From Bacteroidota bacterium (GTDB lineage: Bacteria > Bacteroidota > Bacteroidia > Bacteroidales > CAIWKO01), in assembly GCA_037133915.1 (NCBI GenBank), contig JBAXND010000017.1, positions 1,345 through 65,344 of the forward strand: a stretch of DNA of 64,000 nt. The letters are read 5' to 3'. The notes beneath the pieces were generated by a model. The model was not told where the DNA came from. It did not search any database and saw only the letters and a list, made by a program, of their open reading frames with translations. The translations under genes and the position numbers were made by a program. Positions 54,380-57,300 of this stretch are shown here, piece after piece. The stretch's first letter is position 1; every line of letters starts with the position of its first letter.

Positions 54380-57300
54380 TTACAGCGCAATTAATATTAA
54401 ACAATAATCTAAAAATTCCATTGAAACAGCAGATTGAAATAAACTTTCAATAAAATCACTACTTATTTTTACACTTACTCCGGCTCGCGAAGTTGTTCCG
54501 GTTGGCACGGCGCCATCCATAATTATGTTGAAATTTTTATCAAATCCGACATTACTGCCTAACCCTCCTAATTTGAGTGAACCATCTGCACCAACTGTTG
54601 CAGTAATTATCGGTCCATAACCATACGAGGTGCTTTTATAATTCCCGTACTGGTCAGTAGTAATTACAACAGCAGAAGGATCGTTGTCTTTCGTTATTAC
54701 AAAGTAACTCACTTTGATTCCCATATAATCAAGTACAACCCTTTCATCTTTAATTCTGCCAGATGGCAAATTTGTGCTATTTTTCGTTGGCGGATCATCA
54801 GGACCATCACTCACCGGCAATGAAATAAATTTCTCAATAATAGGGCAGGCGGTTATAATGGCTGAGAGCAATTTCCCCATTGCCATACCGTTCAGAGCCT
54901 GAATGTAGGTGCCGTTGGCGGTCGCTTCCCGGGTTTCACGATGGTGCTCAGAATTCGGGTAAATCATTTCTGCCGAACTGGCGTTACCACTCATACCGTT
55001 GCACCCAGGTCCGATTATATTATTAATGGCCGTAATCATGCCATAATACGACATGTCGTCATAATCATTCTTATGCTCATCAATGTACTTCATCCAGTTT
55101 TTATAATCGATGCCGTTCGACCAACCCGCAGTAGCATCACAACGATAATAGGTGTTTCCGCTCGGGTCCGAAAATTTCAGCGGGTTGTTCAGGCAGTAGC
55201 TGTAGCGATTATAACTCTGCGTAAGGTTTGTGGCCTGCACCACCGGGTCAGGACTCAGAAAACGCCCTGCAACCGGGTCGTAGCAGCGGCCGTTCATGTT
55301 GATAAGACCAAAATCATCGAGGTGCTCATGAAAGGTATAACCTCTGCTAAGCATGGTTGGTGTTGAAAAGCCTGAATATTCCCATGTTTGCGGATTGCGT
55401 CTGCGCCCCCAGGCATCATAGCTGTATTGCTCAAGACATACCTTGTTCCAGTTAATGAGACCTGTTATGCTGCCCTGTCTGTCTTTACGCAGATAGTTTA
55501 TCAAGCCGTTTATTGCCACTGCTGTTACACCGTTTGATGTAGCAATATAACAATAATCTGTTACGGCTCCTGCAGCGGTGGTTTCTTTTTCGTACAATCC
55601 GCAATAGATGCGGCTTTTCACGAGAGTGGTGCCATTATACACCGACATTTTATTGCGCTGCTGACCGGGACCGTAAGTATATATTATCTTTTTATTGTTC
55701 TCGCTTATCTGCTGGATTTTATTAAAAGCGGTATACGTGATATCCTGCGTAAACGATGGAATGGCCGTTGTGCCCGGTGTTCCTGCAATTCTTAATACCG
55801 CGTTCAGTTTGACGGCATCATAGACGTAAGTTCCAGCATCGGTTTTACGGTTGATGTTACCGTTGGGCGCATATTTCATTGATTTGGTAGAAATGTCGTT
55901 CATCACTACTTCGGTAAGCCGGTCGAGGTTATCATACGAAAATGTTTCGTTCAATAAATTCAACTGGTCAGAACGACTGATTAGATTGCCTGTTGTATTT
56001 TCATACGTGTACACATCATTTTGTATGGGGCTTTGTATCTGAGTCAGGCGATTCTGCGCATCGTAACTATAGGTTGTCAGTATCCCGTTGCTCTGCAGCT
56101 CCTGCAGTATCTGGCCGGCAGCATTTTCCGATGTTTTTTTCCATACCTGATTTCCGTTTGCTTTCACTTCAGTGAGTTGCCCGTAAACATTGTAAACATT
56201 GTTTACCAACAAGCCATTGGGATAGGTAATGGCCGTATTGTTTAAATAATTATCGTACGCATAATTGTAGCTATAGCCGGCACCGGCAATGTTTTCGGTT
56301 ACGGTGGCCGGTAATCCGTAATTATTGTAAGCGTATGTTACGCTCGCACCCGGACTGAGTAAGCATGAAGGTTTTCCTTTTCCCGGACCCGATACAACAT
56401 ACGAATATTCATAAACGCCATCCGGCCCCGTCTTTTTGGTCATCCTGCCTGCATTATCATACAGAAACGAGTAAAGGTTACCACGAGCATCTTTCTGTGT
56501 CAGAAGTTCACCGTAAATATTGTATGTGAAGAGGCTGGTGCCGGCGTTCGGGTCTGTAAGTGATGTTTGATTTCCATAGACATCATACGCAAATGAAATT
56601 ACAGTTCCGTTGGTTGAGGTAGTTTTGGGTTTGCCATTGCTGTAAAATACCGTGCTTATCGTTCCACCGTTATCGGTACTGCTCACTACCTGCCCGAAAT
56701 CATTAATCGTTTTACTGCTGACTTTTCCGCCGGGATCTGTTATGCTTACTGTTTTTCCGCTGTAGGCATAGCTCGTAATCAGCCCGTCGTTACTGGTAGT
56801 CGCGGGCCTTCCGGTGTTGGGTTGATATGTTCCGGTAATCCATTTCGGAAGTTCGTTGCCGTAATGGGGCTTGCTTTCGCGGTACAATTGACCTTTTGCA
56901 TTGTATTCTTTTTCGGTATAAACCAATGCACCGTTAAAGCCCTCTGTGGTATTGTATACGGGACGTCCAATCTGGTCGTACCAGGTTTTTGTGTCGGGGG
57001 CGTTGGCGCGTTTTTCTTCGGTATAATAAAGGCCGTTGTTTACAGAATTATCCCATCTATAATTGTAAATATTCGATGCCCCGGCAGGCAGGTTTTCCTG
57101 TTTAATTCTGCCCAATCCATCATACAGATAGGTCGTGATATTTCCTGCAATATCTGTTACCGATGTCTTCACACCAAAAGCGTTGTTATACTGGTATGTG
57201 ATTGTATGCCCGAGCATGTTGGTTTCAGTGAGAACAAAGCGACCACGAGTATCGTAGGTGAAATTCTTGTAGCGGTCTGTAATGCCTGAAGTGGTGGTCG

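Follow-up and report, generated by a model that had tools for sequence, protein, structure and literature searches.

The locus considered here raises a question that is easily stated: what is carried, and against what target, at the C-terminal end of an RHS protein whose final 257 residues match no protein family? The gene lies on the minus strand of a 64,000-nucleotide stretch of DNA from a member of the Bacteroidales (Bacteroidota; GenBank assembly GCA_037133915.1, contig JBAXND010000017.1, positions 1,345 to 65,344), the whole of which we call the window; the genome is a 4.47-Mb assembly in 114 contigs. We suggest that these 257 residues, hereafter the tip, form the polymorphic payload of an RHS cocoon of the fused TcB-TcC-like kind, exported through Sec, and that the payload acts on the envelope of other bacteria. 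Taken in full, with the envelope as the site of action, we consider this explanation moderately probable. The features from which the argument starts are the following.

54380 to 60541, minus strand: RHS gene, 2053 codons from a GTG at 60541, encoding an SpvB / FG-GAP / RHS protein with a Sec signal.
55157 to 55420, minus strand: Rhs-associated core domain TIGR03696, residues 1708-1795, RCYDPVAGRF...NNPLKFSDPSG.
55154 to 55168, minus strand: DPSGN boundary motif, GAC CCG AGC GGA AAC, read from the sequence.
54845 to 55153, minus strand: first ~103 residues of the tip; G+C content at third codon positions (GC3) about 0.5, like the RHS core; helical in low-confidence models; no homolog.
54383 to 54844, minus strand: last 154 residues of the tip; AT-rich, GC3 0.27; beta-rich with two terminal helices in a low-confidence model; no homolog.

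The boundary between scaffold and tip is sharp. The core model TIGR03696 (Rhs_assc_core, NCBIfam) matches with 63.3 bits against a cut-off of 32.5 and is covered from position 1 to position 75 of 76, so that the core ends on the G of DPSG; the codon after DPSGN is ACC (T), starting at 55153, and 257 further codons are open from there up to the TAA at 54382-54380. A first-pass annotation of the window had placed the start of a variable payload at this Rhs-core boundary, with coordinates and sequence for DPSGN and the 257-residue tip that are correct as given, and had proposed to test whether identity among homologs collapses exactly at DPSGN. It does. We took the 120 best homologs of the C-terminal region (taxon names on homologs include Bacteroidales, Lentimicrobiaceae, and Mangrovibacterium), located the last NP....DPxG motif in each, and compared 116 of them with the query, anchored on DPxG and ungapped, in 20-residue bins. 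Before the G, mean identity is 0.81 (-60 to -41), 0.59 (-40 to -21), and 0.79 (-20 to -1); after it, the values are 0.07 (0 to +19), 0.05 (+20 to +39), and 0.09 (+40 to +59). The columns of the core motif are invariant among the 116, and across the 120 best homologs the sequence before the motif is nearly uniform while the 25 residues past it are different in each. The end of the core model and the collapse of identity agree, and the 257 residues after DPSG are, as read from the sequence, the variable C-terminal payload of the RHS protein.

Within the boundary motif, the asparagine that stands where a leucine had been expected was at first thought noteworthy. It carries no meaning, since family members vary freely at the residue behind the G: it may be Y, E, N, W, D, M, or F, with Y, E, and W common as well, and N occurs in 17 of 118 motif matches (DPSGN in 12, DPTGN in 3, and DPDGN in 2). 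Thirty-five residues before DPSG, RCYDPVAGRFLSPDP forms the upstream half of the autoprotease motif, and the Rhs core with its paired aspartates (YDP...DPSG) is presumed to be an aspartyl autoprotease site.

What stands in front of this boundary identifies the kind of toxin involved. Four further features of the RHS gene matter here.

60410 to 60493, minus strand: predicted Sec signal peptide MNILSNRRHAAIVAIIAVITFSVKCTSA, followed by Gln, from Kyte-Doolittle hydropathy.
59810 to 60313, minus strand: SpvB N-terminal domain, as in TcB, residues 77-244 (Pfam PF03534, 50.6 bits, E = 2.1e-13).
58217 to 58450, minus strand: best-scoring FG-GAP / VCBS beta-propeller repeats, residues ~698-775 (Pfam PF01839, PF13517).
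55421 to 57844 (limits approximate), minus strand: RHS/YD-repeat shell, residues ~900-1707, with Pfam RHS_repeat in 4 stretches.

The likelier start of the gene is an ATG at 60493, which gives a protein of 2037 residues with the N-terminus MNILSNRRH. Its signal peptide reaches a maximum of 2.0 in a 19-residue Kyte-Doolittle window, on AAIVAIIAVITFSVKCTSA, and ends ...CTSA before a Gln; by analogy with Bacteroidota signal peptides, cleavage is predicted before that Gln. More FG-GAP / VCBS repeats lie on both sides of the best-scoring ones, and the Pfam E-values are 4.5e-17 for FG-GAP, 3.2e-19 for FG-GAP_3, and 1.5e-25 for RHS_repeat. From NCBIfam, NF041261 spans residues 1322-1573 of the shell and TIGR01643 matches it at 9.6e-17; PF25023 is present on homologs in their precomputed Pfam lists. 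TcdB_toxin_midN, at 24.0 bits, falls slightly below its Pfam cut-off of 24.8. A PAAR domain was found neither in the RHS protein nor across the whole genome, and Por_Secre_tail, the Pfam domain for sorting by type IX secretion (T9SS), matches neither the RHS protein nor its tip, even with the threshold relaxed to E = 10. Because SpvB, FG-GAP repeats, RHS repeats, an Rhs core, and a signal peptide occur together, the protein is, by its predicted domains, a fused TcB-TcC-like cocoon with a Sec signal.

The payload was described from the outset as unassignable, and further searching has not changed that description. Neither the whole tip nor either half matches Pfam at E <= 10; the whole tip has no match in NCBIfam or among the chain sequences of the Protein Data Bank (PDB) at the same threshold, and PHROGs gives a single chance match (E = 0.27). 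When the tip was compared by phmmer with 1.84 billion sequences, one for each 50%-identity cluster of about 15 billion proteins, the sole match was a 237-aa self-match. Its source is a 2-kb metagenome contig (L001) that matches window positions 55103-53120 with 100% DNA identity and meets the window sequence at 55103, directly behind an adapter. We considered whether the 43 unmatched bases at the end of that contig might be a different RHS core; they are sequencing adapter, and the idea was rejected. Positions 1-43 of L001 hold the Nextera transposase adapter (TCGTCGGCAGCGTCAGATGTGTATAAGAGACAG), an untrimmed-read artefact of the metagenome assembly.

Searches closer to home give the same picture. 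BLASTP of the tip against the 120 best homologs found no match in their tips, there is no second copy of the tip in its own genome, and six-frame searches, with the whole tip in 40 relatives and with each half in 401 genomes of the order, returned chance-level matches only, none of them at an RHS C-terminus. The weak matches in the relatives lie inside an open reading frame (ORF) resembling an outer-membrane receptor and another resembling a nucleotidyltransferase, and were rejected as chance. So were those of the last half in the order, which fall in large surface proteins and in stop-containing frames rather than RHS C-termini, and those of the first half, all at E >= 0.007, which at E <= 0.05 involve 11 of the 401 genomes when the cut-off alone would lead one to expect about 20.

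An unassignable tip is the usual state for this RHS toxin class. About 19 of the 120 listed homologs carry a precomputed Pfam domain beyond the scaffold that is possibly a toxin (PF15528, PF00959, PF05257, PF02557/PF13539, PF14113, PF10908, PF13529, and a few others); since the remainder, about 84% of the tips, are unnamed, the lack of a name is normal here. The length of 257 residues is typical too, the family median being 280 for 117 tips, and when those 117 were compared all against all by BLAST, 21 were singletons, the present tip included. To have no relative in the whole representative library is nevertheless a stronger statement than to be a singleton among 117.

The tip is not uniform along its length, and the break in its composition bears on where the toxin proper begins. 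A two-segment split of GC3 places a changepoint at codon 1899, near tip residue 103, with a log-likelihood ratio of 14.5; the two sides of the split stand at 0.51 and 0.27, and along the gene GC3 is about 0.43-0.5 up to this codon. The ORF that follows the RHS gene has a similarly low GC3, 0.31, and the genes beyond it are back at 0.44-0.52.

53674 to 54327, minus strand: 217-aa ORF starting 52 nt past the RHS stop; signal-anchor at the N-terminus; the best immunity candidate.

Because GC3 breaks within the tip and the 217-aa ORF matches the part behind the break, we place the boundary of a cassette inside the tip: the last ~155 residues together with the 217-aa ORF are probably the most recently acquired, foreign unit, joined within an older tip and not at DPSG. 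The evidence for this is composition only; the repeats that might have been scars flanking the cassette are just 15-16 nt chance repeats. The last 154 residues are the probable toxin proper.

A break inside the tip rather than at DPSG is also what one might see if the tip were a non-toxic recombination scar, an older tip having been cut near residue 103 and joined to unrelated AT-rich sequence that is open by chance, leaving the cocoon disarmed. A borderline hydrophobic stretch at the break, the want of relatives for either half, and the very low confidence of the structural models all fit such an accident. However, 154 stop-free AT-rich codons are very unlikely to arise by chance (about 1e-5 by a rough estimate), the tip frame is the sole open frame over the AT-rich stretch, and a closely spaced ORF of the same composition lies downstream, as expected of a toxin-immunity cassette. 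Nor is uniqueness a sign of decay, given that 21 of 117 family tips are singletons. We regard a scar as improbable, and we continue with the tip as a payload that ends in a toxin-immunity cassette.

What the cassette might do has been approached through its own residues with modest results. The second half of the tip had been called Gly/Ser/Thr-rich; it is richer in these residues than the first half, but only mildly so (0.28 against 0.23). The extreme C-terminus had been called hydrophobic, with a hint of a membrane; the run is only about 8 residues long (CLILIAL), too short for a membrane segment. No 19-residue Kyte-Doolittle window in the tip reaches 1.6, the maximum being 1.59 at residue 96, beside the composition break. 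A T9SS sorting domain or a membrane segment hidden in the tail of the tip was considered and rejected, there being no Pfam match and too low a hydropathy. The tip contains only three His residues and no known catalytic signature. As to the toxin motifs that the first-pass annotation did not see, DEHKND does fit the pattern HxxD, and short motifs of this kind cannot be judged without homologs.

The neighboring genes are more informative about the site of action. At the N-terminus of the 217-aa ORF, basic residues precede a hydrophobic stretch of 19 (residues 7-25, Kyte-Doolittle 1.97), and no obvious cleavage site is seen; we infer a signal-anchor that leaves the other ~185 residues in the periplasm. 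It has no homolog but itself and belongs to no Pfam, NCBIfam, or PHROGs family. Beyond it lies a gene that had been proposed as a second immunity candidate.

53035 to 53583, minus strand: 182-aa protein with two membrane helices; membership in the toxin module doubtful.

This protein has 42 other homologs in Bacteroidales, at 37-53% identity. In the three contexts of family members that were inspected (with a lipocalin gene; behind GntR and Band_7 genes; between a helix-turn-helix gene and a peptidase M90 gene), none stands beside an RHS gene, and the 182-aa protein is therefore not counted as immunity for this tip. An attempt to reach the function of the payload through its downstream genes failed for the same two reasons, the 217-aa ORF having no homolog and the homologs of the 182-aa protein not lying beside RHS genes in those three contexts.

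Proteins that are exported or membrane-bound follow the tips of this class elsewhere. Four related loci were inspected, and in each the next ORF past the tip either begins with a hydrophobic export or anchor sequence or is polytopic. Three of these loci are in related genomes, where that ORF carries a membrane helix or else a signal peptide; the fourth belongs to a second SpvB-RHS gene of the genome under study (contig C20, locus L009 2689-9141, plus strand, 2150 aa), with 44% identity across the final 383 of 416 core residues that were compared. Behind its DPSGW comes a tip of 300 aa, Gly-rich and unnamed; two small ORFs for polytopic membrane proteins are next, and the gene has a YD/T9SS-tag gene of its own. 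In the precomputed Pfam lists, cell-wall enzymes stand on several homologous scaffolds: lysozyme (PF00959), CHAP (PF05257), peptidases (PF02557 and PF13539), and Tae4 (PF14113), together with PF10908. The related RHS protein of genome G005 (locus L034 6860-12379) has a tip of 245 residues that contains HELIH, a possible HExxH metallopeptidase motif, and an ORF with a lipoprotein-like signal comes after it.

An envelope or membrane target had been suggested in the first-pass annotation. The exported or anchored ORFs that come next and the wall enzymes on related scaffolds lend this moderate support, at the level of the class rather than for the present tip in particular. Because the immunity candidate is anchored and predicted to face the periplasm, and because of this family context, we favor action on the envelope, and an envelope target is plausible.

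Several considerations weigh against the explanation that we prefer. Toxicity, cleavage, and immunity are alike deduced, from sequence and from analogy with better known proteins. The join between core and tip, at 55103-55168, is supported by a single assembly. Since the tip has no homolog, no alignment can be built for it, and it is without a conservation pattern or a sign of purifying selection. AlphaFold2 run without an alignment gave a predicted local distance difference test score (pLDDT) of 34.0 for the whole tip and 34.4 for its last 154 residues; these models are unusable, and at a score near 34 a fold search with them would be meaningless. Some scaffolds of the family carry PF15528, which one source calls polymorphic toxin type 23; envelope toxins are thus not all that the family carries, and a membrane-anchored immunity protein is compatible with a cytoplasmic target.

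The last two of these points lead to a different reading, in which the tip is an enzyme of undescribed fold (a nuclease, NADase, deaminase-like protein, or similar) that crosses the inner membrane of the target and acts in the cytoplasm, the anchor serving to keep the immunity protein at the site of entry. Many nuclease and deaminase tips have been listed on TcdB/TcaC-type scaffolds (Zhang et al. 2012, PMC3482391), PF15528 occurs on the same scaffold family, and without an alignment a missing recognizable motif proves nothing. On the other hand, 35 of 117 family tips have, in their first 60 residues, a hydrophobic Gly-rich leader, which we infer to be the most obvious candidate for a membrane-crossing element, and the present tip has none; the immunity candidate is predicted to face the periplasm; and the tip has only three His residues and no known catalytic signature. 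We think a cytoplasmic target unlikely and retain the envelope as the more plausible one.

The means of delivery can be approached through the remaining genes of the locus.

52046 to 53023, minus strand: 325-aa secreted protein of no known family (no Pfam or NCBIfam match), between the 182-aa gene and the YD/T9SS-tag gene.
51581 to 52009, minus strand: 142-aa protein: signal peptide, single YD repeat (FEYTYDAAGNRVKR), type A T9SS sorting domain.

A tblastn search of 12 related loci (L029-L040) did not find the 325-aa protein. The 142-aa protein, recognized by Por_Secre_tail in Pfam (1.6e-12) and by TIGR04183 in NCBIfam (2e-15), is a different matter. It is 35% identical to its counterpart beside the second RHS gene (L009 10346-10822) and has full-length relatives in many genomes of the family and the order. 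Its gene adjoins an SpvB-RHS gene in 8 of the same 12 loci (L029, L032, L034-L037, L039, and L040), and genes of this type take one of two places, immediately upstream of the RHS gene or past the tip cassette. The YD/T9SS-tag gene is a conserved partner of the RHS class.

One further gene of this genome might seem to offer a partner of another kind. There is no TcA gene within the window, and one TcA-like gene lies on another contig (C61, locus L055 2835-11060, plus strand), where it ends 11 nt before the contig end. Its product, of 2741 aa, has matches to ABC_toxin_N (1.8e-48) and to a neuraminidase-like domain (2e-27) and, just short of the contig end, to positions 1-43 of the TcB-binding domain; it has no signal peptide. 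One could then see in the RHS protein the BC component of a genuine Tc (ABC) toxin, with a payload that enters eukaryotic cells through the C61 protein and with downstream ORFs that have nothing to do with immunity; the genome offers just two SpvB-RHS genes with which the TcA-like gene might pair. Yet ABC_toxin_N was not found in any of the 40 relatives searched, several of which have the same RHS class, and at least eight have that class together with its T9SS-tagged partner, so TcA does not serve the class as its general partner. With a Sec signal on the RHS protein and none on the TcA-like protein, the two would end up in different compartments; their genes lie on separate contigs; and membrane or exported ORFs follow the tips throughout the class, as in antibacterial systems. 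We judge a Tc holotoxin to be very improbable at this locus, and we return to an exported cocoon directed at other bacteria.

The course of events that we envisage is as follows. By analogy with TcC and with the Rhs proteins of type VI secretion systems (T6SS), the paired aspartates (YDP...DPSG) would cut the chain after the boundary, and the released peptide of ~29 kDa would stay largely unfolded within the YD shell until it is delivered. To judge from their composition, the last ~155 residues and the 217-aa ORF would be a toxin-immunity cassette recombined into an older tip. Topology and family context suggest that the 217-aa ORF encodes the immunity protein, tethered to the inner membrane and for the most part periplasmic, and that the toxin acts on the envelope (wall, membrane, or periplasm) of neighboring bacteria and not on their cytoplasm. 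Export probably involves the conserved YD-repeat/T9SS-tag partner at 51581-52009.

It is tempting to go further and to propose that the last ~155 residues and the 217-aa ORF are a toxin-immunity pair of undescribed fold and action, aimed at the Bacteroidota envelope, delivered by Sec plus the T9SS partner, and founding a new family of antibacterial toxins. We put this forward as speculation, with a rather low expectation that all of it is right. New enzymatic activities and antibacterial targets continue to emerge from polymorphic toxin tips, and a tip without relatives could hide a new mechanism; such orphans, however, are common on the present scaffold. What the locus adds is that the real cassette boundary seems to lie inside the tip and that, of the two immunity candidates put forward, just the 217-aa ORF appears to belong to the module. 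As a lead, the tip is less unusual than the TcA-like gene on contig C61.

The mechanism invoked here is that of the TcB-TcC cocoon, known from the structures of Photorhabdus TcdB2-TccC3 and Yersinia entomophaga YenB-YenC2. The present protein has in common with these an SpvB N-terminus, an FG-GAP propeller, a YD shell, and an Rhs core with paired aspartates, and in both a hypervariable region of similar size lies behind the cleavage site. It differs in being a single polypeptide with a Sec signal and no adjacent TcA gene, in having a TcdB_toxin_midN match that stays slightly below the cut-off, and in belonging to a class that has a conserved T9SS-tagged partner instead of TcA and occurs in relatives without a TcA-like gene. 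The T6SS Rhs effectors, such as Pseudomonas protegens RhsA with its autocleavage at PxxxxDPxGL, share the same core motif and lose similarity at the same point; unlike them, the present protein and its genome are without PAAR, and the position after the G is free, not Leu.

Two further published systems invite comparison. In Apibacter, a small T9SS sorting-domain gene is adjacent to SpvB/TcdB-type Rhs genes (Steele and Moran 2021, PMC8125069); scaffold and adjoining gene are the same as here, although that paper records the adjacency alone and has no payload or immunity protein of the present kind. The TcdB/TcaC-type polymorphic toxins, which are listed for Bacteroidetes, consist of a signal peptide, SpvB, an integrin-like beta-propeller, RHS repeats, and a variable toxin (Zhang, Aravind et al. 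2012, PMC3482391). The domain order of our protein is the same, signal peptide and variable C-terminal toxin included, whereas its tip falls outside the toxin families catalogued there or in current Pfam. In other words, the present tip is a so far unique tip on a known kind of toxin, and in this it is ordinary for its class.

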